Below are positions 1 through 9,769 of a stretch of 64,000 bases of DNA, piece after piece. How positions within the stretch are numbered: the first letter of the stretch is position 1; every line of letters starts with the position of its first letter. The notes under the pieces were generated by a model. That model searched no databases. It was not told the DNA's origin and was given only the letters and a program-made list of their open reading frames with translations. Position numbers and translations under genes: made by a program. This DNA is from Candidatus Omnitrophota bacterium (GTDB lineage: Bacteria > Omnitrophota > Gorgyraeia > Zapsychrales > Fredricksoniimonadaceae). The stretch spans positions 68,266 to 132,265 of the forward strand of contig CAJARJ010000012.1 of assembly GCA_903944345.1 (NCBI GenBank), given 5' to 3'.

Positions 1-118
1 TCTCGTACTCAAAGGGGCTCATGTAATCAAGTGTTGATTGAGCCCCTTTACGATTATAGAACATCTCCACATATTCAAAGATCTTGCTTCTTGTTTCTTC
101 TCTGGTCCTAAACTTGTG

Positions 119-148
119 TTTAATTAGTGACACGCAGAATTGTTTCTT
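119..148. repeat. 30-bp direct-repeat module, left copy (TTAATTAGTGACACGCAGAATTGTTTCTT). The same 30-mer with one mismatch is at 8069..8098.
   Basis: Read directly from the sequence. It contains the 18-mer GTGACACGCAGAATTGTT (128..145). Confidence 0.7.
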
Positions 149-184
149 TCTTGTATCGTATAGATACGTAAATAAATGTAATAA

Positions 185-202
185 AACAATTCTGTGTGTC
201 AC
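185..202. repeat. Inverted partner 18-mer (AACAATTCTGTGTGTCAC) of the 128..145 arm, 39 bp away.
   Basis: It is the reverse complement of GTGACACACAGAATTGTT. An identical 18-mer is at 8173..8190. Confidence 0.7.
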
Positions 203-512
203 CGATTATCTTTACCGATTATCTTTAGCCTATTTTCTTAAAACACGATTTTCTATCAAAAAACTGAAAACCGCACTACTAGAACGGAAATCCATAAAAA
301 TCTTAATCTTGCCCTCGTTAATCTATTTCCGAATCCCCCGATGCGGATTCGTGCTTCCTGATTAACTAGCTTTGGAGCTCCAATCCTTAATGAAACTTTT
401 TGCTGTATTATTGCTTCCTTTGACCAAGATAAATAATTAAAGCAGAACAAAAATGAACTGTGAGCATAGCTTCCTGAAACTTTGGAGATTTCCCTTCTTT
501 AATATGCCTACC

Positions 513-1208
513 TTATTCGCTTGCAAAAGCCCACATTTTTTCAACAGCCGTATCAACTGGTTTAGGCAAATTGCGGTCTTTAATAAAAGCGCCTAATGTC
601 CCTTTAGAACCAGAAACTTCTCTCGCAAGGCATTCAAGTGAAGCCATACTATGTTGAATAGCTCCGGTAACATCAGGTTCCGGTCTTTTTGATAAATCCT
701 CTCCTGCATGTTTTAATTCATTTAAAGCAGTGGGTCGCCCAGAATCATGTAAAAGAGATTTGGCTTCAGTTGTTATTTGCTCATAATCGCCTTCACCTCG
801 CACGGAAAGCACTCCACCTTCCATCTTCCAGCCGATGCCTTTTTTAAGAAAGAAATTATTTAACCCTTTCTCGAAGAACCTATCTGTTGCATCTTTTCGA
901 GCAAAAATTTCACAAATATCATAAACTTCAAACCATTCACAGTTATCAATCAAACCTTCACATTCATTAAGGACATTAGGATCACTCCAATTTTGAGCTT
1001 CATCCGGCAAGGAATCTAGCGCCTCACAAATAATGCTGCGCAAAGCCCTTGCATTAAATCCGCTCTTTAATGCTACGGACAATATTCCTCTTCGCAGAAA
1101 ACCTGGGGCCTCATAACGAACAGTAATGGACACTGTAGGTGCTTGATACCCATGTCTCTCTGAAAATAAAGGTTTTGTATTCATAAGGATTATGTCGCGA
1201 ATAAACAA
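513..1208 (-). CDS. Hypothetical protein (231 aa). Possible abortive-infection/defence-associated protein, but no motif recognised.
   Basis: Long ORF in the AT-rich island. It begins with a TTG start in the ORF track. It lies 6 bp downstream of a small membrane-protein gene on the same strand. Confidence 0.45.
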   Translation of the reverse strand: MFIRDIILMNTKPLFSERHGYQAPTVSITVRYEAPGFLRRGILSVALKSGFNARALRSIICEALDSLPDEAQNWSDPNVLNECEGLIDNCEWFEVYDICEIFARKDATDRFFEKGLNNFFLKKGIGWKMEGGVLSVRGEGDYEQITTEAKSLLHDSGRPTALNELKHAGEDLSKRPEPDVTGAIQHSMASLECLAREVSGSKGTLGAFIKDRNLPKPVDTAVEKMWAFASE

Positions 1209-1214
1209 TTACTT

Positions 1215-1547
1215 TTACCGCTCCTGTCCTTTCAATTTCCCAAGACCTGTATCAATCCAATCTATAATGCGATACGAATATCCGGCAATTCCGATAACTG
1301 TACCAATAGATAAAATTAAATCGACCTTATCCAATGAAGCAACCCGGAAATCTGGATTGCGAATCAAGAGAAGATATAAGCAAACCCACCCGGCTAACGA
1401 ACCTATAAACTCCGACAAAAAGATACCAGACGCCAATATTTTCTCTCCCTTCTTCCAGCTCTTTCCTTCTTCCACACAGCCATGAACACCCCAGAAAACA
1501 CTGGCAACAAGCGATATCCCCAAAAACAACCAAAAAGAAATTTGCAT
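1215..1547 (-). CDS. Small integral membrane protein (110 aa, about 3 predicted TM helices).
   Basis: Hydrophobic segments in the translation. Tightly linked upstream of the 231-aa ORF. Confidence 0.4.
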   Translation of the reverse strand: MQISFWLFLGISLVASVFWGVHGCVEEGKSWKKGEKILASGIFLSEFIGSLAGWVCLYLLLIRNPDFRVASLDKVDLILSIGTVIGIAGYSYRIIDWIDTGLGKLKGQER

Positions 1548-1710
1548 ATTATTCTCTCTTTCAGACTACCATCTTAATCCGTTTAATTGTACCCAATCCA
1601 TCGCTACGCGTTCATATTTCCAAAGATATAGGCCCTAACGCCAAATGAAGGAAAGAAATCATATTTTATCTTTCAAATTACAGTCCGAAACCTACTTTAA
1701 GTCAAATGTG

Positions 1711-2334
1711 TTAGACATTGCCAATATCTAATATCAAACGCGAACCATCCACCTCGGCTCCTATTCCGATTAAACGATCCCACCTCACGATATTGCCCTC
1801 TTTGCATTTATCTCTAAAACATTGAATCTGCTTAGCAAGATTAGAAATAGAATAAACTCGATATGTGATCCAAACCACTTCTCCTTTTGGTACAGATAAC
1901 GATCCAATAATCCGGTCATCCTCAGAACCTGGTTGTATAAAACCTGATTTTGTAATCCAAACATCCATTTCTGTTACCATATCGTCAGGCGCATTGGGTA
2001 TCCAACAAATGCCCTTCTTATGATCAACCTGATTAAGATTAACCTCAGATGATGGTGTAATAATGCGAAATGCTAATATTTCACCAGGTCTCATTTCCTT
2101 TGGGCGTTCCCAGATATCCAGATGCCTTATCTTTGACTTATCAAAAGTGTTTTCTGCGCTATCCCAATACTCTTCTGTAAATCCTATTTGCCAACTACCT
2201 GATTCATGCATACTTGCTTTCAAGGAACCTAAAGAACGACAAGTCAAATAGATATCTGGCGTTGTTTTGGACACAAAACAATTCCAAGTAGCCGCTTCAA
2301 AAGTTCCACTTTTAATGCCAAATCTTAAACACAT
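1711..2334 (-). CDS. Hypothetical protein (207 aa).
   Basis: ORF in the AT-rich island. No recognisable motif. Confidence 0.4.
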   Translation of the reverse strand: MCLRFGIKSGTFEAATWNCFVSKTTPDIYLTCRSLGSLKASMHESGSWQIGFTEEYWDSAENTFDKSKIRHLDIWERPKEMRPGEILAFRIITPSSEVNLNQVDHKKGICWIPNAPDDMVTEMDVWITKSGFIQPGSEDDRIIGSLSVPKGEVVWITYRVYSISNLAKQIQCFRDKCKEGNIVRWDRLIGIGAEVDGSRLILDIGNV

Positions 2335-2543
2335 CTTTTAGAACCCACTCTAAAGAACTTACCAATCGGACAATATTTAACAGATCAAACTTCTCTGCCC
2401 TAGAATTAAACTCAAATGAACCCATGCCAACTCCTCATCATCTAAAAACAAGATAATACTTCTTACCAATTCAATCTAATTTACCAATCTATATTAACCA
2501 AAATAAACACCTTACCAACCAATCCCACCCCTAATAAATAACT

Positions 2544-2656
2544 CCATTTTGCTTGGGGTTGTTCAAGACCCCTCCCCCTATCACAACCTATGGTTGAGGG
2601 GGTGGGGTCTTGAACGAACTGAAGAGCAAAGCGATTCAGAACCCCATGCAAAATGG
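2544..2656. repeat. Nested imperfect inverted repeat / long hairpin. Outer arms 2544..2558 and 2642..2656; inner 19-bp arms 2561..2579 and 2597..2615; side hairpin 2619..2639.
   Basis: Seen in the sequence. GTTCAAGACCCCTCCCCCT pairs with AGGGGGTGGGGTCTTGAAC. CCATTTTGCTTGGGG pairs with CCCCATGCAAAATGG. It lies in a 460-bp intergenic gap. Confidence 0.45.
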
Positions 2657-2793
2657 CAACTTAAGAAATCAAAAGATTACAGGAACATTTCCAATCTGTA
2701 ATTCAGCAGTAATAAATCTGTAATAAGAAACCCTGTAGAAAAAGCGCCAGAAGGCGCCTTCAAAGACATTAAACTAACTTCAACCTAATCTTT

Positions 2794-3522
2794 CTAAACA
2801 GGCTCATCTTTCTTTTGCGCCTTAGCCGCAGCCAACACAAACGCACAGAGGCCAACAAAAATTGCTGCCGCTAAAGCCACCAACAATAACGGACACAAAA
2901 TTCCAGCGATCACATAAAGCAAGAAAAAGAACCCGTCCTTGAGCCAATTAAAACTTTGCTGTTTGACCTTCTTGGCGACAACATCAAACCAGATATCGTT
3001 ATAAAAGTCTATCGGCATGACCTTGTAAGGCGGATTCTCAAAGCAATAAGCATCCGCCTTCTGCAATCCAGTTGCAATTAGCTCAGAACAAAAATAGGAA
3101 TCATTTACATTAAAACAATCACCCAAAAACTTCTTGTCCAACAGGAAATGCAATCCAGCTGGAAGAAAGTTGAACAACGCGAAATAGATCAACGCCCGAA
3201 AATCATACTTCTTTGATTCTTCACCTTTACAAAAAGCTACAACCTTAGCGATAGCCTGTGCATTCGCTTTTATCGGTCGCAGCGCAAGCAGATCTAATTT
3301 CTCCGTCAAATACGCTTCCTTAAAACTCCTTTTGACGATTCCTCCAGGAAATGCCTCAACAACTTGTCCATATCCGATATATAGCGCCGCATGAGTCCAA
3401 CCACGATCCCCATACCCCCTTTTGAAGAAATTGGCCGTTCTGATCGGAAGCGACCCAAGCTCAAATCCCCTGCCGCAGGTCAAAACGACATCGCCCGGTT
3501 GAAGTTTTTCTTCTAAAGACAT
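2794..3522 (-). CDS. YiiX/YaeF (DUF830) family permuted papain-like cysteine peptidase with a C-terminal TM anchor.
   Basis: Motifs GWTHAALYIG and CSELI, with a C-terminal hydrophobic helix. It lies 18 bp downstream of the His-rich ORF on the same strand. Confidence 0.5.
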   Translation of the reverse strand: MSLEEKLQPGDVVLTCGRGFELGSLPIRTANFFKRGYGDRGWTHAALYIGYGQVVEAFPGGIVKRSFKEAYLTEKLDLLALRPIKANAQAIAKVVAFCKGEESKKYDFRALIYFALFNFLPAGLHFLLDKKFLGDCFNVNDSYFCSELIATGLQKADAYCFENPPYKVMPIDFYNDIWFDVVAKKVKQQSFNWLKDGFFFLLYVIAGILCPLLLVALAAAIFVGLCAFVLAAAKAQKKDEPV

Positions 3523-3540
3523 AAATCCCCCCTCATGCCA

Positions 3541-3924
3541 TTAGGCTAAAAATACTGCCTGCTGACGATTTGCTGGCTGCTTAATTACCCAAAGACGATA
3601 CCCTTTTCCATCCGAGTCCGGCTCGCGATCTGGAAGATCTTCATGAGAAATGTATTCCCAATGCACTTCATCAAAGAAATAATGGTGCTCCCTGAAATAA
3701 TGATAAAGCAATACCGCTCGAGCAACATTATACGGTGACAAGAAATGATCAGGATGATGCTGCTTGATGTATTCAAGGTCTAAGCGAAAATGGTATTGAA
3801 AAGAATCTTCCACAATTTTCTGATGACAATTATTATCGCGATAGGAAACGAAACAAATAACATCATCCCAATCGACCCGATCCTGGCTTTGCCTTCCATA
3901 AACCTTCATACAAATCGGAACCAT
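3541..3924 (-). CDS. His-rich hypothetical protein (127 aa). Last gene of the nucleotidyltransferase operon.
   Basis: ORF starts 3 bp after the stop of the upstream nucleotidyltransferase gene. Confidence 0.4.
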   Translation of the reverse strand: MVPICMKVYGRQSQDRVDWDDVICFVSYRDNNCHQKIVEDSFQYHFRLDLEYIKQHHPDHFLSPYNVARAVLLYHYFREHHYFFDEVHWEYISHEDLPDREPDSDGKGYRLWVIKQPANRQQAVFLA

Positions 3925-3927
3925 TTG

Positions 3928-4755
3928 TTACTCCTCACTAAGCTCGCAAGGCAAAGGTAAGAATTCAGCAAACGCAGCCGCCGCTTCAGCCGCAAAGCCC
4001 TTATTCTCTAACGACTGAACACATTGAACAAAATCTTTCAATTTATGAATTAACTCGCGCTTCCTTTCGGCTTCCATGTATCCGATATCAAACCTATCAA
4101 CAAACCGATAGAAGTGAGCACATATTGATTTGGGTGATTCATCAAAAATTGATTCAGCACTCTCAACGATTTCAACCACCTTTTGTTCAATAAAGAACGA
4201 TTCAAAAAGATACCCATTCTTTGCATTCCAATATTTGATTATTCTGACCAGTGGCTTTATGAGCCCAGAAAATTTGGTGTTCACGCTGGAAAGCTTGTCA
4301 TTGAAACCTTTTGGATCTGTATCCATCCAGTCATCCCCACATAACGACTTTACTGGAATCTTCAGCCCGCCCGACCACCGAGATTTTCTTGCCGGAACCA
4401 ACTCAAAGTTAATATGATTCAACGACAATACGATTGCCGGCGCTGACTGCGCGATTTCAGATTTTGCATAGCTTGACTCGACAAAACGACGCAATCTATC
4501 TAAATACGTCTGTGGTCTATTATATGGATCAGCAAAGACTACCATTAAGTCCACATCCGAATTCTGATCGACACTACGAGGTAGAATAGTCCCTCGACTA
4601 TACGATCCAAAAATAAAGCTATCCACAATCTCTTGTCCCAAAGACGTATTTAGCCGCTCTTGTAACGTTGAAATTGATTTCTTAAGGCCGAGCTTCTCGC
4701 CATCGTCAACACCGACAAAATCGACCAATTCTAAAAGGTACCTATTTACCGACAT
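3928..4755 (-). CDS. SMODS/CD-NTase-like nucleotidyltransferase (Pol-beta superfamily), second copy in the operon.
   Basis: Motif GSYSRGTILPRSVDQNSDVDLMVVF (GS...DxD) and a downstream FELVP acidic residue. Start chosen at MSVNRYL with a GGAG ribosome-binding site; it overlaps the upstream gene's stop by 11 bp. Confidence 0.55.
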   Translation of the reverse strand: MSVNRYLLELVDFVGVDDGEKLGLKKSISTLQERLNTSLGQEIVDSFIFGSYSRGTILPRSVDQNSDVDLMVVFADPYNRPQTYLDRLRRFVESSYAKSEIAQSAPAIVLSLNHINFELVPARKSRWSGGLKIPVKSLCGDDWMDTDPKGFNDKLSSVNTKFSGLIKPLVRIIKYWNAKNGYLFESFFIEQKVVEIVESAESIFDESPKSICAHFYRFVDRFDIGYMEAERKRELIHKLKDFVQCVQSLENKGFAAEAAAAFAEFLPLPCELSEE

Positions 4756-5251
4756 GCCCCGCTCCATCCACTCCGTACTGCGATCTGCCGGAATCAATAT
4801 CAGTTTTTGCCAACTCATAATCTTTACGGCCCACCGCCAGTGCGGTCTGATTTAATTCATCTCGCATTCTGGACAATGACAATAACCGTTGCTTTGCGGC
4901 ATTAACATCTGCCTCCACCACTTCTATCTGCCTAAAAATACGTGCCGCATTTCGTAGGGCTAAATATTGTCCGCCATACGTTTTATGCTTTTCCGATCTT
5001 TCCGAAGGGCGTAAAAACGTCAACACTGTCGTTAATGCCGCCGATGCGACAGCACAGGCCACGGCCCAACTGGGAGCCTTCTGAACGACAGAAACACCAG
5101 CCAGTGCGGCAACAACAGAAGCAGGAATTCCAATTAACAAATGATACCCATTCCATCTATCTGCGGCGTTATATTGCCCCTTTGCAGAATGCTCCGAGTC
5201 TTCTTCGATTCTCTTTGCTTCCTTAATCATTTCCTGAATAATTTCAGCCAT
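4742..5251 (-). CDS. SLATT-like 2-TM protein, candidate membrane effector.
   Basis: Two central hydrophobic helices flanked by charged helices. A GGAGG ribosome-binding site sits 5 nt upstream of ATG (MAEIIQEM). Positioned between the two nucleotidyltransferase genes. Confidence 0.45.
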   Translation of the reverse strand: MAEIIQEMIKEAKRIEEDSEHSAKGQYNAADRWNGYHLLIGIPASVVAALAGVSVVQKAPSWAVACAVASAALTTVLTFLRPSERSEKHKTYGGQYLALRNAARIFRQIEVVEADVNAAKQRLLSLSRMRDELNQTALAVGRKDYELAKTDIDSGRSQYGVDGAGHVGK

Positions 5252-5268
5252 ACCGCCTCCAAAATCAA

Positions 5269-6330
5269 TCAAAACGTTTCACCGAAGATTTGCCGCCAAA
5301 GTTCAATCGCCTGATCTTGATTTCCAACCTGCTCAGCCTCAAATGCCAACCGGGCAACGCCAGCCATCTTGTTGACAATAAAACGATGGTGATCGGAAAC
5401 ATCCCCCGGAGAAACCAATGGAGCTTGATTCACAAATGACGACAAACTCCCCGAGCTTATCGCGACATTCACGGCATAGAAAGCAAAAGCAACTGCTTCC
5501 GATACTTTTGCAGCATAGTTTCCAGCGCTATTTGAATCCAGAAACCTCCTCGCTATGGCGAGCTCAACATAGTATGACTGCAACGCTCCGTTCAGCGCCT
5601 CCTTGTTCCAAAACTTGAGTATTTTAATCGCCTTCTTATATGACCGAGCATTATTCTGATGAAGCTTATTAGCAATTTCTTTATCAACTTTCGGATTGGT
5701 TCTAATCCATCCGTCCTGTCCGTCGGGTATTAAATAAAATTTCGCTTCACTTATTGCATCTGGCCGCATAAGAAAACAGGGAACGACATCAAACCCGAGA
5801 CCATCTTCGTCCTCGGTTTCGCCATGGGCCATCGCAATTCTTACGGCCTCCCCGTCAGGACGTACATCTGTTCTCGGATAATGCCTCTGAAGAACAGCAG
5901 ACAACCCACTGATCAGCTTTCTGGAAGATATGTAACTTCCGGACATCCATCGGGCAGTCAGTAAGGGATTGCTCGATAAGACACCATCTGAAACGACTGT
6001 ATAGGGAAGGCGTAATCCATCTTGAAGATAATTGAGACTGTACCCATCTAAAGGAAAATAAATATCAATATCATCAAGCGGCCATATTTTTGTGTGACGT
6101 GCAAACGATCCACCTAAAAAATCCCGATCCTGAACTGACAACACACTCGGAAAAGTTTGATCATTCTGATACTCGGATGATAAAAAATCTCTCAAATGAT
6201 TCTGGCTGTCACTAGCTTTCGACCTAATCCCATCCTCTATATTGATCTGCTTCCTCAACAACTCATCAAATGCACCGTTGACAGCGCTGCTCGCGGATTC
6301 TTTCAAAATAGCATTCAGTAATGCGCTCAT
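5269..6330 (-). CDS. SMODS/CD-NTase-like nucleotidyltransferase (Pol-beta superfamily), first copy, 353 aa.
   Basis: Motif GGSFARHTKIWPLDDIDIYF (GS...DxD) and a third acidic residue in GFDVVP. A GGAGG ribosome-binding site precedes the ATG. Confidence 0.55.
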   Translation of the reverse strand: MSALLNAILKESASSAVNGAFDELLRKQINIEDGIRSKASDSQNHLRDFLSSEYQNDQTFPSVLSVQDRDFLGGSFARHTKIWPLDDIDIYFPLDGYSLNYLQDGLRLPYTVVSDGVLSSNPLLTARWMSGSYISSRKLISGLSAVLQRHYPRTDVRPDGEAVRIAMAHGETEDEDGLGFDVVPCFLMRPDAISEAKFYLIPDGQDGWIRTNPKVDKEIANKLHQNNARSYKKAIKILKFWNKEALNGALQSYYVELAIARRFLDSNSAGNYAAKVSEAVAFAFYAVNVAISSGSLSSFVNQAPLVSPGDVSDHHRFIVNKMAGVARLAFEAEQVGNQDQAIELWRQIFGETF

Positions 6331-6334
6331 CCTT

Positions 6335-6547
6335 CTACCTCCCGTTAATCAAATCATTAAGGGAGGCCACACGCTTATGGTCCAGCAATGTATCCAAATG
6401 CATATCGGCTCGAACGCCAAGATCTACACCATACTTCTTTTCGATAGTGCCAATATGAGTATCGCCTCGCTTCGCGCGAAGCGGTCCTGCTTCAGTTCTC
6501 GATCTGCAACCTCTCATACCTGGAGCATCGTTCTTACATTTACTCAT
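6335..6547 (-). CDS. Small hypothetical protein (70 aa). First gene of the operon.
   Basis: An AGGAGG ribosome-binding site sits 6 nt upstream of ATG (MSKCKND). Its stop is 4 bp before the NTase-1 start. Confidence 0.4.
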   Translation of the reverse strand: MSKCKNDAPGMRGCRSRTEAGPLRAKRGDTHIGTIEKKYGVDLGVRADMHLDTLLDHKRVASLNDLINGR

Positions 6548-6838
6548 GGGAACCTCCTGTGTTTTTATTTGATTAAACTTGACGATTCCCATGTTGACTG
6601 GTCTAATACAGACAAAAAGGGAACAGAAGTCTCGTTTCAAGCGACCTTCCAAATTTCTCTTAAGCCCTCGGTTGCCGCCGAGGGCTTTTTCTTTCTATAA
6701 ATAATGTCTTCTGTATATCATTTCCCACCATTAGTAGTATACATCTCTTAAAGAATACCAATATATTGATTTCCTGTCAAGAATAAAAAACCACTCATAC
6801 GTGTGGCCACAAATCAATATCTTAAAAATTCCATGTTC

Positions 6839-6859
6839 TTTTACGCTTATAGCGTAAAA
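6839..6859. promoter_or_regulatory. Perfect 21-bp palindrome TTTTACGC-TTATA-GCGTAAAA, candidate operator.
   Basis: Seen in the sequence. It lies between the ImmA-like gene and the nucleotidyltransferase operon, inside its promoter region. Confidence 0.4.
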
Positions 6860-6875
6860 CGTAAATAAAAAAATA

Positions 6876-7586
6876 TTACCGCTCTCTAAGATCACGGTAA
6901 CTATCAATACCATTAAGCTGAAGTTCAAAATCATCTTCGGCAAGCGACAACAGCCCCAAGTTCTGTAAACGAATTGTAGCCGCCTGTTTTGAAACGTCGA
7001 ACAACCTCACTAAAGTGTTAACCAAAAACTCGTGATCGTTAGACTTTGATCGAATCTGCTTTACACATTGTTCAAAGATCGACCGTGGCATTAGTAAGGC
7101 TGCCGCTCCCCGATTCGCTTGCCACTCCGTATAATCACCAACCTTGGGCTGATCGTTTCCAACGTCTTCCTTAATTGTATGATTATGACAGAACAGCCTC
7201 CCCGCACCTTGAAAAAGAGGGCCATGAACTAACGCGTGAAACGACTCATGAGCACATGTAAAACGAAAACGCCCGCGCACCTGAACAGCGTTTCTTTCCT
7301 TGTATAAGCCTGCGCTTATCCTAATTAAACATGACTTGTCTTGATTAAAGACAGTCGCGCCTAAGACCCCAGACGGCAAATCAGAATCATCAGGACTGTA
7401 CTCAACGCGCTCCTTAAATAGCCGGTCGATAAAATTTCCGACATCGATGGCAGGACGATTGACATCAATCTTGCCTCCGCAAAAGCGGTAGTACCGCTCC
7501 TCCATGAAGTCATCGATATCAGCTCCCGAACAGATTAACCTCCGTCCGTAAGTAGCCTGATTGTCTGTTATCCAACGCATTGCCAT
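6876..7586 (-). CDS. ImmA/IrrE-family zinc metallopeptidase (CapP-like).
   Basis: HExxH motif (CAHESFHALVH). Immediately downstream of an XRE HTH gene. Confidence 0.6.
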   Translation of the reverse strand: MAMRWITDNQATYGRRLICSGADIDDFMEERYYRFCGGKIDVNRPAIDVGNFIDRLFKERVEYSPDDSDLPSGVLGATVFNQDKSCLIRISAGLYKERNAVQVRGRFRFTCAHESFHALVHGPLFQGAGRLFCHNHTIKEDVGNDQPKVGDYTEWQANRGAAALLMPRSIFEQCVKQIRSKSNDHEFLVNTLVRLFDVSKQAATIRLQNLGLLSLAEDDFELQLNGIDSYRDLRER

Positions 7587-7598
7587 ACTTTGCTCTCA

Positions 7599-7955
7599 TT
7601 ACTTGTCCAATTCCTTCTTTAAACGCTCAAGAACACCCGGGTCAGCTTGAGCCTTCTCTGCTATGCGACGAAACAACACCCCGACCTCTACTTCCTTGTT
7701 CACGGCATCTTCAATAATCGGGTCAACCTTGCCTGCCTTGCCCAACAGCTCTTGCACATCTAGATTCAAAACTTTCGCAAGCTGAACAACAACCTTCCCG
7801 GTTGGAGGATTGCGCCTCCCCTGCTCGATATCATTCAAATATGATACCGAAATGGCGTTTCCATCATCATTAAGTACGGCTTCGCAAACCTTGCGTAAAC
7901 TATATTCCAGCCTGAGCCGCTGTTGCTTTATATTTTGCCCAAATGTAATTACCAT
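7599..7955 (-). CDS. XRE-family helix-turn-helix transcriptional regulator (CapH-like).
   Basis: N-terminal HTH (QQRLRLEYSLRKVCEAV...SYLNDIEQGRR). Paired with the ImmA-like peptidase. Confidence 0.6.
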   Translation of the reverse strand: MVITFGQNIKQQRLRLEYSLRKVCEAVLNDDGNAISVSYLNDIEQGRRNPPTGKVVVQLAKVLNLDVQELLGKAGKVDPIIEDAVNKEVEVGVLFRRIAEKAQADPGVLERLKKELDK

Positions 7956-8068
7956 GTCCTCATAAGCATACAGCGTAACGCTGGAGTGTCAAGAAGAATA
8001 TTGGAGAACCACACTATGACTAATAAATATGGCGGGATTTTAAAACTTACGGATTATCAATATTCTAG

Positions 8069-8098
8069 TTAATTAGTGACACACAGAATTGTTTCTTG
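8069..8098. repeat. 30-bp direct-repeat module, right copy (TTAATTAGTGACACACAGAATTGTTTCTT).
   Basis: 29 of 30 positions identical to 119..148. A TTGACA hexamer sits at 8096..8101. Confidence 0.7.
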
Positions 8099-8172
8099 AC
8101 ATTCTTTACGACAATTAAACTTGTTGCACTCTGGATTTTTTCATTGCAGTAGAATGTAACAGAATGTGATAG

Positions 8173-8190
8173 AACAATTCTGTGTGTCAC
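8173..8190. repeat. Inverted partner 18-mer AACAATTCTGTGTGTCAC, 78 bp from 8077..8094.
   Basis: Identical to 185..202. Confidence 0.7.
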
Positions 8191-8201
8191 CAGTTCCTTA
8201 T

Positions 8202-8222
8202 TGGCTCCCCCGCGAGGGCTCG
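8202..8222 (-). repeat. Duplicated 3' fragment of tRNA-Asn (acceptor/T-stem 18-mer plus an encoded CCA); att-like remnant.
   Basis: CTCCCCCGCGAGGGCTCG at 8205..8222 is identical to 8411..8428, the 3' end of the tRNA-Asn gene. It is preceded by TGG (CCA on the minus strand). Confidence 0.6.
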
Positions 8223-8405
8223 TTGCCTTCCGCTCGCGCTGAAGATCTTGGAAGGGATCCTTTATCAGCGCTCGCTACAGGTCACACCCCCGGCCCGCAC
8301 TCAGACGCTCCTGTTCGTCGCGTCTAGCGGGCCTCCTTTCTCGCCCTCGCTTCCTCCGTTATATCTAATAAAAAAGCCGCCCTGAAAAGGACGGCTTTTT
8401 TATTA
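8223..8405 (+). ncRNA. Candidate small RNA / conserved tRNA-flanking element, copy A.
   Basis: Paralogous to 38530..38735. Conserved hairpin AGACGC-UCCUGUUCGUC-GCGUCU. Ends in an intrinsic terminator. Convergent with the tRNA-Asn gene. Confidence 0.3.
8371..8401. terminator. Bidirectional rho-independent terminator (A-tract, GC hairpin, T-tract).
   Basis: AAAAAAGCCGCCCTGAAAAGGACGGCTTTTTT. It lies between tRNA-Asn (minus strand) and the candidate sRNA (plus strand). Confidence 0.6.
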
Positions 8406-8448
8406 AATAACTCCCCCGCGAGGGCTCGAACCTCGGACACTGTGGTTA

Positions 8449-9002
8449 CGATCTGACTTCAATTACTTGAAGAGTCGGACTTTCTCTTCGCCATACAAAA
8501 CAAAGTATGTTTTGCTTCAGGCGGCGGGTGTAAAGTCTCTGCACTTGCCCGGCCTTTTGACTAAAGGCCTGCTAGCTCAGGATTGACCTGATCTTTATGA
8601 CCAGGCTTTTCCTGACTTAGCCCGCTTGTCACTTCCGCGTTTCCACGGAAGGCTGCTAACTTTGAGAATGAGTTTCCCGGTGACAATTCGCACACAATAT
8701 CATGCACTTATCCAACTCGACTTTAACTCTTTCCCAACTTCGGGTATACCCTTTGCTGGAGATATTAAATTCTTTAACTGTTGGATCAATGTGATGAAAC
8801 TCTAACGCATCGATACAGCGATCATATCCGCAACGCTCACATTTGCCGCCTTTATAGGCAACAGCCATTTCACGCACTTTTTTACGGCGCGCATAAACAG
8901 CTTTAATGAGATATTCACGGCGATCATTGTAAGAACGGTTATCTTTTCTCACGCTGTCTCCTGAAGACTCGACACTCGGTTTGGACCAGCCAAACCTCGT
9001 GA
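8449..9002 (-). mobile_element. Candidate group I self-splicing intron with an HNH homing-endonuclease ORF.
   Basis: Exon 1 ends in U and the intron ends in G. R-like element GCAGAGACUUUA and S-like element AAGAGAAAGUCCGA can form a GACU/AGUC P7 helix. Several hairpins lie in the 3' 250 nt. The ORF has CxxC...HH...CxxCH. Confidence 0.6.
8656..8952 (-). CDS. HNH endonuclease (about 100 aa), encoded inside the intron.
   Basis: CERCGY...EFHHIDP...CANCHRETH. A GTG start has AGGAGA 5 nt upstream. The ORF-track frame is open back into exon 1, up to 9012. Confidence 0.55.
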   Translation of the reverse strand: MRKDNRSYNDRREYLIKAVYARRKKVREMAVAYKGGKCERCGYDRCIDALEFHHIDPTVKEFNISSKGYTRSWERVKVELDKCMILCANCHRETHSQS

Positions 9003-9139
9003 ACAGCCACATGCTCTACCAACTGAGCTACAGGGGAATGAAATTTAAAAGAGCGAATGTTTGCTGCCAAAAAAATATGCGGCAAACGAAAGCGAGATGA
9101 ATTATACAGATATATTTTATCTTGTCAACCACCGAAACG

Positions 9140-9769
9140 CTAAACCTGCACCTGGTCGCGCGCGGGCTCTGTACTCACCGCCCGACGGGACTGCAGCGAC
9201 ATGGTCAGCGTCGACATATCGGCAAACTCCAGCGACCCTCCGGCGGGAATACCCACACCTATGCGCGACACCCTCACCCCGCACGGCTGAAGGAGCTTGA
9301 TAAGGTGCAAAGCCGTAAGCTCGCCTTCCATATCCGCGTCGGTCGCCAGAATAACTTCCTGCACATTCTGCGAGTGGACACGCTGAAGGAGCTTGGCCGT
9401 GTTAAGATCGTCCGGCCCCTGCCCGTCAGAAGGCGAAATAATCCCCAGTAAAACGTAGTACTGCCCCTTGAACGTTCCGGTCTTCTCGATAGCAATCACA
9501 TCCTTGGGGTTCTCGACCACACATATCACCCGCGCGTCCCGGCTGGAATCCATGCACACCGGGCAAATATCGCCTTCCGAAAAATTGTTGCACAGCTTGC
9601 AGAAACGCAGTTTTTCCTTGAGCTCGGCAATGCCGCGCGCCAGGCTCATGGCTTCCTCAGCCGGATTGTTCAGCAGCCACAACACCATGCGCTCGGCACT
9701 GCGGCGCCCCACTCCGGGCAGTTTGACCATGCCTTCAATGAGGTTTTCTATAACACGCGGATAGTTCAT
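9140..9769 (-). CDS. recR: Recombination protein RecR.
   Basis: MNYPRVIENLIEGMVKLPGVGRRSAERM; C4 zinc finger and Toprim domain. 4-bp overlap with dnaX. Confidence 0.85.
   Translation of the reverse strand: MNYPRVIENLIEGMVKLPGVGRRSAERMVLWLLNNPAEEAMSLARGIAELKEKLRFCKLCNNFSEGDICPVCMDSSRDARVICVVENPKDVIAIEKTGTFKGQYYVLLGIISPSDGQGPDDLNTAKLLQRVHSQNVQEVILATDADMEGELTALHLIKLLQPCGVRVSRIGVGIPAGGSLEFADMSTLTMSLQSRRAVSTEPARDQVQV

Follow-up and report, generated by a model that had tools for sequence, protein, structure and literature searches.

A tRNA-Asn(GUU) gene probably interrupted at position 35/36 by a mobile group I intron with an HNH endonuclease gene

The DNA analysed here very probably contains a stand-alone tRNA-Asn(GUU) gene that possesses its own promoter and terminator and in whose anticodon a mobile, self-splicing group I intron separates nucleotides 35 and 36. 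In the following, the window denotes the whole 64-kb stretch of DNA that was analysed. The gene is located on the minus strand and comprises the following elements, given in the order of transcription:

9101..9128, minus strand: sigma-70-type promoter of the tRNA gene, consisting of TTGACA, a 16-nt spacer and TATAAT, with 12 of 12 consensus positions matched
9003..9037, minus strand: tRNA-Asn exon 1 (nucleotides 1-35, 35 nt) with the 3' end GGCUGU; U35 precedes the 5' splice site
8449..9002, minus strand: group I intron of 554 nt that starts with UCACGA and ends with AGAUCG, the terminal G being position 8449
8411..8448, minus strand: tRNA-Asn exon 2 (nucleotides 36-73, 38 nt) with the 5' end UAACC and the discriminator G; CCA is not encoded
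8370..8396, minus strand: intrinsic terminator with an 8-bp G+C-rich stem followed by a U run (-21 kcal/mol, z = -6.5 in folding)

When the two exons (9037..9003 and 8448..8411, minus strand) were joined, ARAGORN called a 73-nt tRNA-Asn(gtt), and the ligated exons yield the anticodon loop CUGUUAA with the anticodon GUU, just as an earlier note on this DNA had read them. The promoter is located about 60 nt upstream of exon 1. The terminator at 8370..8396 was not listed by a pattern scan and was recovered by folding. The split copy is the sole tRNA-Asn gene found within the 64-kb window. In its default mode, ARAGORN detected no tRNA at this locus of the window and reported only Pro, Gly, Tyr and Thr genes elsewhere, while the mode allowing introns returned a tRNA-Thr(cgt) with the intron description i(35,554) at the locus. 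The 3' end of the tRNA recurs as an exact 17-nt repeat with CCA behind it, 189 nt downstream of the gene and on the border of a low-GC island that contains CBASS-type genes. This repeat was considered as the mark of a rearrangement that formed a pseudogene, and an attachment-site repeat of the adjacent low-GC island was found to fit better.

The decisive feature of the locus, and the strongest evidence for an intron, is a 10-nt internal guide sequence, overlooked in the earlier note, that is predicted to form both P1 and P10. This guide and the elements in front of it in the intron are:

8978..8996, minus strand: hairpin GGUUUGG-CUGGU-CCAAACC at the 5' end of the P1 loop (-8.9 kcal/mol, z = -1.6, weak when taken alone)
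8959..8962, minus strand: ribosome-binding site GGAG, 6 nt before the GTG start codon, as read from the sequence
8656..8952, minus strand: HNH endonuclease ORF of 98 aa with the GTG start at 8952 and the TAG stop at 8658..8656, located wholly inside the P1 loop
8651..8660, minus strand: internal guide sequence GUUAGCAGCC, intron positions 343-352, with 10 of 10 positions matched

In P1, the guide nucleotides GCAGCC (8656..8651) pair with GGCUGU of exon 1 and place a G·U pair at U35 and the 5' splice site, and in P10 the nucleotides GUUA pair with UAAC of exon 2. By pairing with both exons (GGCUGU|UAAC), the guide spans the junction GGCUGU|UAACC between nucleotides 35 and 36, where the insertion had been placed before. 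P10 is accompanied by a compensatory change from G-C to A-U in one aligned sequence. The bases at the splice sites follow the group I rules, with U as the last base of exon 1 and G as the last base of the intron; both had been noted previously and are evident on reading the sequence. The splice-site rules and the P1/P10 pairing together ruled out the tRNA-Thr(cgt) call of ARAGORN. The check with the Rfam model RF00028 (Intron_gpI), which has a gathering score of 50 bits, was run and matched positions 8711..8456 of the minus strand with 60.9 bits (E = 5.5e-13), in agreement with the earlier assignment of the 554-nt insert to group I. The ligated junction in the mature tRNA-Asn is predicted to read GGCUGUUAACC.

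Because the guide begins 343 nt into the intron, the ORF is placed in the P1 loop, and the stop codon of the ORF overlaps the guide as part of GUUAG. Two counterpoints to the splicing model arise from this arrangement, namely that P1 has to close over a 342-nt loop and that ribosomes completing the ORF would occupy the guide sequence. An ORF-less relative (L009) possesses a hairpin at the same place as the hairpin at 8978..8996 of the window.

From the guide to its 3' end, the intron represents a compact ribozyme of about 210 nt with the helices P2, P3, P4, P5, P6/P6a, P7, P8 and P9. The complete intron can be described as a compact ribozyme whose P1 loop has received about 335 additional nucleotides. 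The core elements, along with the changes observed in related introns, are:

8632..8651, minus strand: P2 hairpin with a GAAA tetraloop, compensatory changes in 8 of 8 pairs
8625..8621 with 8528..8524, minus strand: P3, enclosing P4, P5, P6/P6a and the 5' strand of P7, compensatory changes in 3 of 5 pairs
8615..8611 with 8581..8577, minus strand: P4, invariant
8605..8587, minus strand: P5, compensatory changes in 5 of 6 pairs
8576..8543, minus strand: P6/P6a, compensatory changes in 3 of 5 pairs of P6
8541..8534, minus strand: 5' strand of P7, invariant
8490..8522, minus strand: P8 hairpin, compensatory changes in 2 of 3 outer pairs
8476..8481, minus strand: 3' strand of P7, AGUCCG, invariant, with J8/7 GAAGAGAA directly before it
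8457..8472, minus strand: P9 hairpin with a GUAA tetraloop, compensatory changes in 5 of 6 pairs

P9 is followed by eight more bases, the last of which is the terminal G. In the alignment to RF00028, GCAGAGACUUUAC falls on the consensus J6/7-P7 and GAAGAGAAAGUCC on the consensus J8/7-P7', in line with the earlier note, which had recognized these segments as R-like and S-like elements forming the P7 pairing GACU/AGUC. Covariation was evaluated with a set of 23 non-identical related cores of the same type, in which the pairs were counted. Standard pairs occupied 95.9% of the cells, compared with 30-43% when the 3' partners were slid by 1-3 columns. Changes on both sides were detected in 27 of the 48 pairs, and none of 500 shuffles reached the observed values on any measure. 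These data support the view that P2, P3, P5, P6, P8 and P9 are maintained by compensatory substitutions in the related introns. P4 and P7 match the consensus and can pair, with all 11 of their pairs being invariant across the 23 cores; covariation is uninformative on these two helices because their pairs never vary.

With respect to the subgroup, P7.1 and P7.2 are absent in the window core, in which P7 continues through UUUACA to P3' without a break and GAGACUUUACA leads straight into CCCGC of P3'. Aligned with the window core, the published tRNA-Asn introns labelled IA1 contain about 35 extra nucleotides between P7 and P3'. The separation of the P7 strands amounts to 39-60 nt in most loci with a compact core versus 74-100 nt in most loci with an extended core. 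From its architecture, the window core is provisionally regarded as IC3-like and grouped with the published IC3 examples.

The ORF in the P1 loop encodes a small HNH protein. Its own ribosome-binding site and GUG start had been recognized correctly before, while the length of 100 aa given at that time included two upstream codons and has to be corrected to 98 aa. The protein matched Pfam PF01844 (HNH) marginally, with 22.0 bits against a cut-off of 21.4, and no NCBIfam model matched it. A sequence search of the PDB yielded a weak match to McrA, restricted to the C-terminal motif (E = 2e-4). In the protein databases, 7,337 sequences matched at E <= 0.001, and each of the top 120 of these showed at least 67% identity. 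Among 27 homologues with 64-86% identity, the residues C40, C43, H55, H56, C85, C89, N91, C92, H93 and H97 are invariant, a set that includes both CxxC pairs, the HH residues and the N...H residues. The AlphaFold model of the protein has a pLDDT of 90.2. A Foldseek comparison with the PDB gave weak matches (best E = 0.06, TM 0.33-0.44), the top 30 or so of which were all HNH nucleases, including Cap5, Gme HNH, T4 endonuclease VII and the HNH domain of Cas9. Many of the database homologues carry C-terminal tails (...HAKLAAS...) that represent the translated guide and P2 (AAG UUA GCA GCC), and their longer N-termini result from an in-frame ATG inside exon 1 (9012). The intact reading frame and the strong conservation argue for continuing selection on the HNH protein.

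An alignment of the HNH family was used to scan one genome per species, which resulted in at least 569 matching stretches, and the best 80 loci were examined. The majority of these 80 loci belong to Omnitrophota, and the others to Planctomycetia, Nitrospira, Acidobacteriota, Elusimicrobia, Melainabacteria, Bacteroidota, Aerophobetes, Patescibacteria and further lineages. A tRNA-Asn(GUU) gene split at the same phosphodiester was found in all 78 complete loci among the best 80 of at least 569; in the remaining two the contigs end before exon 2, with the same exon 1 being present. All 15 relatives that were tested exceeded the RF00028 threshold, with scores of 52.8-101.3 bits. The closest relatives of the window core among the matches listed are from Omnitrophota and Planctomycetia genome bins. 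Judged from these nearest relatives, the host is probably a bacterium resembling Omnitrophota. Near-identical copies of the locus occur in several metagenome assemblies with the gene order tex, dnaX, recR, split tRNA and HTH/M78 genes, and the intron is present in all of these near-identical contigs (L001-L004). Within the best 80 of at least 569 loci, the same HNH family was observed together with a compact core in Omnitrophota, Planctomycetia and Melainabacteria and together with an extended core in Nitrospira, Acidobacteriota, Elusimicrobia and Bacteroidota. A strict 10-of-10 guide match is absent from those relatives whose 3' end is of the other type; comparison with published sequences showed that they have a guide of the form (N)GCAGCU and a weak P10.

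The orthologous insertion site was compared by using RecR (9140..9769) as query to retrieve related loci from metagenomes, in which the tRNA-Asn gene downstream of recR was inspected. At 11 of these recR-linked loci the tRNA-Asn gene is intronless, with GGCTGTTAACC being uninterrupted. Four loci contain verified introns that lack an ORF, with lengths of 219 nt (L110), 375 nt (L101), 276 nt (L108) and 247 nt (L111), and the guide of L110 is located only 4 nt past the splice site. A verified HNH intron of 548 nt is present in L094, and putative split-tRNA calls were obtained for L118 (306-nt intron) and L119 (555 nt). Alleles with no intron, with an ORF-less intron and with an HNH intron thus all occur, which constitutes a presence/absence polymorphism at the orthologous site. 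The ligated exons of the window are identical to the 11 intronless recR-linked genes at 64-70 of 73 positions, and the differences in the anticodon stem are compensatory. The three allele states together with the conserved exons therefore form the pattern expected of a homing element and speak against a pseudogene.

By analogy with the general group I mechanism and with the in vitro behaviour of a member of the same intron class, P1 would form across the ORF after transcription, and free guanosine would attack after U35. The terminal G (8449) would subsequently enter the G-binding site in P7, and the exon ligation guided by P10 would deliver mature tRNA-Asn and the free intron. As judged from the behaviour of the endonuclease family, the HNH protein, made from either the precursor or the excised intron, would cleave tRNA-Asn genes that lack an intron at or near GGCTGT/TAACC. 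The intron would then spread by homing, with the intron-bearing copy used for repair.

An alternative that is regarded as unlikely leaves the splicing reaction untouched and assumes that the HNH protein no longer acts as a homing endonuclease, because it is inactive, serves as a splicing helper or is drifting to loss. Such a state is expected of the homing cycle once a population is saturated. The intron is indeed fixed in the near-identical contigs L001-L004, so no empty sites are left locally, and the presence of ORF-less and degenerate versions in relatives, along with the marginal Pfam score, would fit the same assumption. The reading frame of the window, however, is intact and retains its ribosome-binding site and start codon, the catalytic and zinc-binding residues are all invariant at 64-86% identity across phyla, and related lineages often have an intronless target at the orthologous locus.

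Far less probable is an insertion-inactivated tRNA pseudogene, in which the insert would be a dead intron or another mobile element, with the functional tRNA-Asn gene residing elsewhere. The view of the genome comprises 64 kb, and the 17-nt copy of the tRNA 3' end located 189 nt downstream could be taken to indicate that the locus was once rearranged. This assumption is contradicted by the intact consensus promoter and strong terminator, by the perfect complementarity in P1 and P10 and by the core helices that are kept by compensatory changes. Moreover, the exons are conserved to the same degree as the intronless alleles and show compensatory changes in their anticodon stem, the same arrangement is found in 78 of 78 complete loci (among the best 80 of at least 569), and intron-bearing and intronless copies of one anticodon rarely coexist (PMC13011429). 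The proposal that the gene encodes a tRNA-Thr(CGU) with the intron inserted two bases upstream, at 33/34, is hardly credible. It derives from the intron mode of ARAGORN with its tRNA-Thr(cgt) i(35,554) assignment, but it would let the intron end in U instead of G and would leave neither the G·U pair nor the P1/P10 match over 10 nt. The tRNA body matches the intronless tRNA-Asn genes at the orthologous locus, and an identical two-base misassignment has been disproved by sequencing of spliced products (PMC13011429). The split tRNA-Asn(GUU) gene with a mobile, self-splicing intron remains the preferred reading of the locus.

The tRNA-Asn intron at 35/36 had at first been taken as unusual, whereas it belongs to a class that is already described. 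As cited by Nakagawa et al. (PMC13011429), introns at this site of tRNA-Asn represent the class 'Asn.4Ug' of Williams 2020 (bioRxiv 10.1101/2020.01.27.920355), a study that expanded the bacterial tRNA intron types to 21 settings; the four known types enumerated in the earlier note (Leu, fMet, Arg and Ile) reflect the state before 2020. Nakagawa et al. 2026 (mSystems, PMC13011429) showed that one tRNA-Asn 35/36 intron, from GCA_016700035.1, self-splices precisely in vitro, with a G-to-C mutation of its terminal G blocking exon ligation, and recorded HNH genes in four Patescibacteria tRNA-Asn 35/36 introns. The Asn.4Ug class agrees with the window in the host gene, the phosphodiester GGCUGU|UAACC, U(-1) and the terminal G, and its members are likewise misannotated as tRNA-Thr by ARAGORN, the two-base shift being documented and disproved by the sequencing of spliced products (PMC13011429). 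The window intron is accordingly a fresh example of the described Asn 35/36 class. The additions made by it are modest and consist of the combination of a compact core with an HNH gene, of the lineage of the host and of how broadly such introns are distributed.

Several published introns enable a closer comparison. In the Patescibacteria assembly GCA_000503835.1 (Table S5, PMC13011429) the same HNH family occupies the same place in the P1 loop as in the window and precedes a GCAGCU guide and a GAAA-capped P2. The published HNH-bearing Asn 35/36 members are all from Patescibacteria and are labelled IA1, whereas the window core is compact. The fully readable published Asn 35/36 cores, which are from Nitrospirota and Bipolaricaulota, contain extra helices between P7 and P3' that the window core lacks. 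Among the published sequences compared, the closest to the window core, with 59.6% identity, is the IC3-labelled intron of the Bacillota_A assembly GCA_022846035.1 (Table S5, PMC13011429), which is inserted at the same site, has the guide AUUAGCAGCC and a GAAA-capped P2, and runs through ...GUAGAGACUUUACAC... directly into P3' like the window core. Unlike the window intron, it is 210 nt long, ORF-less and found in a different phylum.

The classic IC3 tRNA introns, exemplified by the cyanobacterial tRNA-Leu(UAA) intron, share the motifs UCAGGGAAACC, AAUCCUGAGC, GUGCAGAGACU and AGAGAGUCC with the window. The tRNA-Leu(UAA) intron and the window intron each have a compact core of roughly 200 nt in the anticodon loop, a GNRA-capped P2 and P9, and a P1/P10 arrangement that mimics the anticodon stem-loop. 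Their sequences are 49% identical, and they differ in the tRNA and in the insertion position, the classic IC3 tRNA introns being inserted at 34/35 or 36/37 and usually lacking an ORF. The Azoarcus tRNA-Ile intron is another classic compact IC3 intron in an anticodon loop to which that of the window can be likened. The introns of tRNA-fMet, with a PD-(D/E)XK enzyme, and of tRNA-Arg(CCU), with a LAGLIDADG enzyme (PMC13011429), resemble the window intron in being mobile, located in the anticodon loop and equipped with an own endonuclease, but differ from it in the endonuclease family, the host tRNA and the insertion position.

The window provides a clean, intact case of a mobile group I intron whose host tRNA gene may be single-copy and essential; should the genome contain no second tRNA-Asn gene, splicing would be essential. 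The chief importance of the locus is for genome annotation, as standard tRNA finders either miss the gene or call it tRNA-Thr. The genome would therefore seem to be devoid of tRNA-Asn, and estimates of the completeness of metagenome bins would be distorted.

The comparative by-products of the analysis, comprising the free-standing HNH genes, the phage linkage, the two cores and the likeness of the guide, are the part that specialists might follow. In L005 and L009, the closest genome relatives among the matches listed, the intron lacks an ORF and a free-standing HNH gene lies in front of the promoter of the tRNA gene. In L051, where the intron is likewise ORF-less, a free-standing HNH gene is located downstream of the tRNA. 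These loci can be compared with collaborative homing or endonuclease-gene invasion (PMC3984707), in which free-standing enzymes target the insertion site of an intron; the window differs from collaborative homing in that its HNH gene is located inside the intron. Phage contigs contain HNH relatives with 50-68% identity that are free-standing in tRNA arrays. In 40 of the 64 dereplicated phage loci the tRNA nearest to the HNH gene is a tRNA-Asn, with Asn accounting for only 57 of the 427 tRNAs present there, and this tRNA-Asn is intronless and usually located 3-15 nt downstream of the free-standing HNH gene. The linkage (40 of 64) therefore points to tRNA-Asn DNA as the target of the family. The free-standing phage HNH genes can be likened to T4 SegB in a phage tRNA cluster (PMC2330249), which, however, is a GIY-YIG enzyme.

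A tentative reading of these observations, held with somewhat less than even confidence, is that the HNH lineage represents a homing endonuclease specific for tRNA-Asn genes that moves among three settings (phage, bacterial free-standing and P1 loop). It may reside free-standing in phage tRNA arrays beside tRNA-Asn, free-standing near bacterial tRNA-Asn genes that hold an ORF-less intron, or in the P1 loop of two ribozyme backbones, one compact and IC3-like and the other extended and IA-like, at the same insertion site. If true, HEG-bearing Asn 35/36 introns would be widespread well beyond Patescibacteria and would spread horizontally, which conflicts with a published conclusion of limited transfer that was based on complete genomes only. 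Among complete genomes, HEG-encoding IA introns at 35/36 were restricted to Patescibacteria, and the authors considered that draft genomes might reveal more of them (PMC13011429). According to the same study, a genome rarely has both an intron-bearing and an intronless copy for one anticodon. The HNH-bearing Asn 35/36 introns beyond Patescibacteria and their free-standing phage kin extend the published picture, and the series of alleles and free-standing genes provides natural material on how a homing endonuclease gene enters an intron. Read as DNA of the opposite strand, the guide is GGCTGCTAAC and agrees with the homing site GGCTGTTAAC at 9 of 10 positions. In the sense of the endonuclease-gene invasion idea (PMC3984707), this near-copy would account for the position of the ORF directly beside the guide, and the resemblance may be the reason why the HNH gene entered the intron at this point.

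A comparison of the genome loci retrieved with the HNH protein (L005-L084) indicated that two ribozyme architectures occupying one and the same tRNA-Asn site share the HNH family as well as the position of its gene in the P1 loop. A compact core, in which P7 leads straight into P3', is present in the window and in most of the loci from Omnitrophota, Planctomycetia and Melainabacteria. An extended core with extra helices following P7 is found in loci from Nitrospira, Acidobacteriota, Elusimicrobia, Bacteroidota and Nomurabacteria, and it matches the published introns labelled as IA1.

The HNH gene is not confined to the intron in all bacterial relatives. In three of the genome loci the tRNA-Asn gene is interrupted at the same site as in the window (35/36) by a short intron devoid of an ORF, whereas the HNH gene, located inside the intron in the window, lies outside of it:
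L005, 1495..2294: free-standing HNH gene upstream of the tRNA-Asn promoter; intron of 312 nt
L009, 1501..2216: free-standing HNH gene upstream of the tRNA-Asn promoter; intron of 236 nt
L051, 1023..1785: HNH gene downstream of the tRNA; intron of 251 nt

In the window, the guide sequence (positions 8651..8660) shares bases with the stop codon of the ORF (GUUAG). The opposite DNA strand of the guide, GGCTGCTAAC, differs by one base from the presumed homing site, GGCTGTTAAC, and this resemblance could explain why the HNH gene directly adjoins the guide. In many relatives the HNH reading frame continues through the guide and P2, and database proteins therefore carry '...LAAS...' tails. The 347-nt Asn 35/36 intron of GCA_958295805.1 (Nitrospirota) was published as 'ORF-less' (PMC13011429, Table S5), but the nucleotides that separate its guide, GCAGCU, from the 5' splice site translate to ...CADCHRR... 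and resemble the degraded remains of this HNH gene. Such a remnant, if true, would fit a loss of the HEG after fixation.

The search of viral contigs from IMG/VR yielded at least 577 HNH relatives with 50-68% identity that are free-standing inside phage tRNA arrays, including the following members of the set L165-L244:
L166, 1501..1824: viral HNH gene
L188, 1501..1869: viral HNH gene
After dereplication to 64 loci, the nearest tRNA is an uninterrupted tRNA-Asn(GUU) gene in 40 of them; in most cases the stop codon of the HNH gene precedes it by 3-15 nt. The anticodon stems of many of these phage genes differ from the bacterial GG/CC, a deviation that might protect them from cleavage.

The linkage of recR to a downstream tRNA-Asn gene is kept in relatives with 55-66% RecR identity (metagenome loci L087-L119). 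The tRNA gene in these loci is intronless, contains the HNH intron or is split by an ORF-less intron, for which both core types occur. Some of the intronless alleles encode the 3' CCA, which is absent from the window gene. Standard tRNA detection fails at window positions 8411..9037, as default ARAGORN called nothing there; in intron mode, tRNA-Thr was called for this gene (cgt) and for many members of the intron family (cgt/tgt; loci L085-L164). Genome bins carrying the 35/36 intron would accordingly seem to be devoid of tRNA-Asn.

The 17-nt 3' end of the tRNA-Asn gene, GAGCCCTCGCGGGGGAG, recurs 189 nt downstream of the gene and is followed there by CCA (chance expectation, 0.01 matches). Past this repeat, the G+C content drops from 53-59% to 37-46%. 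The region 1..8200, which contains defence-type genes, resembles a genomic island that has inserted at tRNA-Asn, although the window showed neither an integrase nor a second boundary:
8202..8221, minus strand: exact copy of the 17-nt tRNA-Asn 3' end plus CCA
1..8200: HTH and M78 peptidase pair (CapH/CapP-like)
1..8200: two CBASS oligonucleotide cyclases, one 2TM effector and a PDC-S32 candidate
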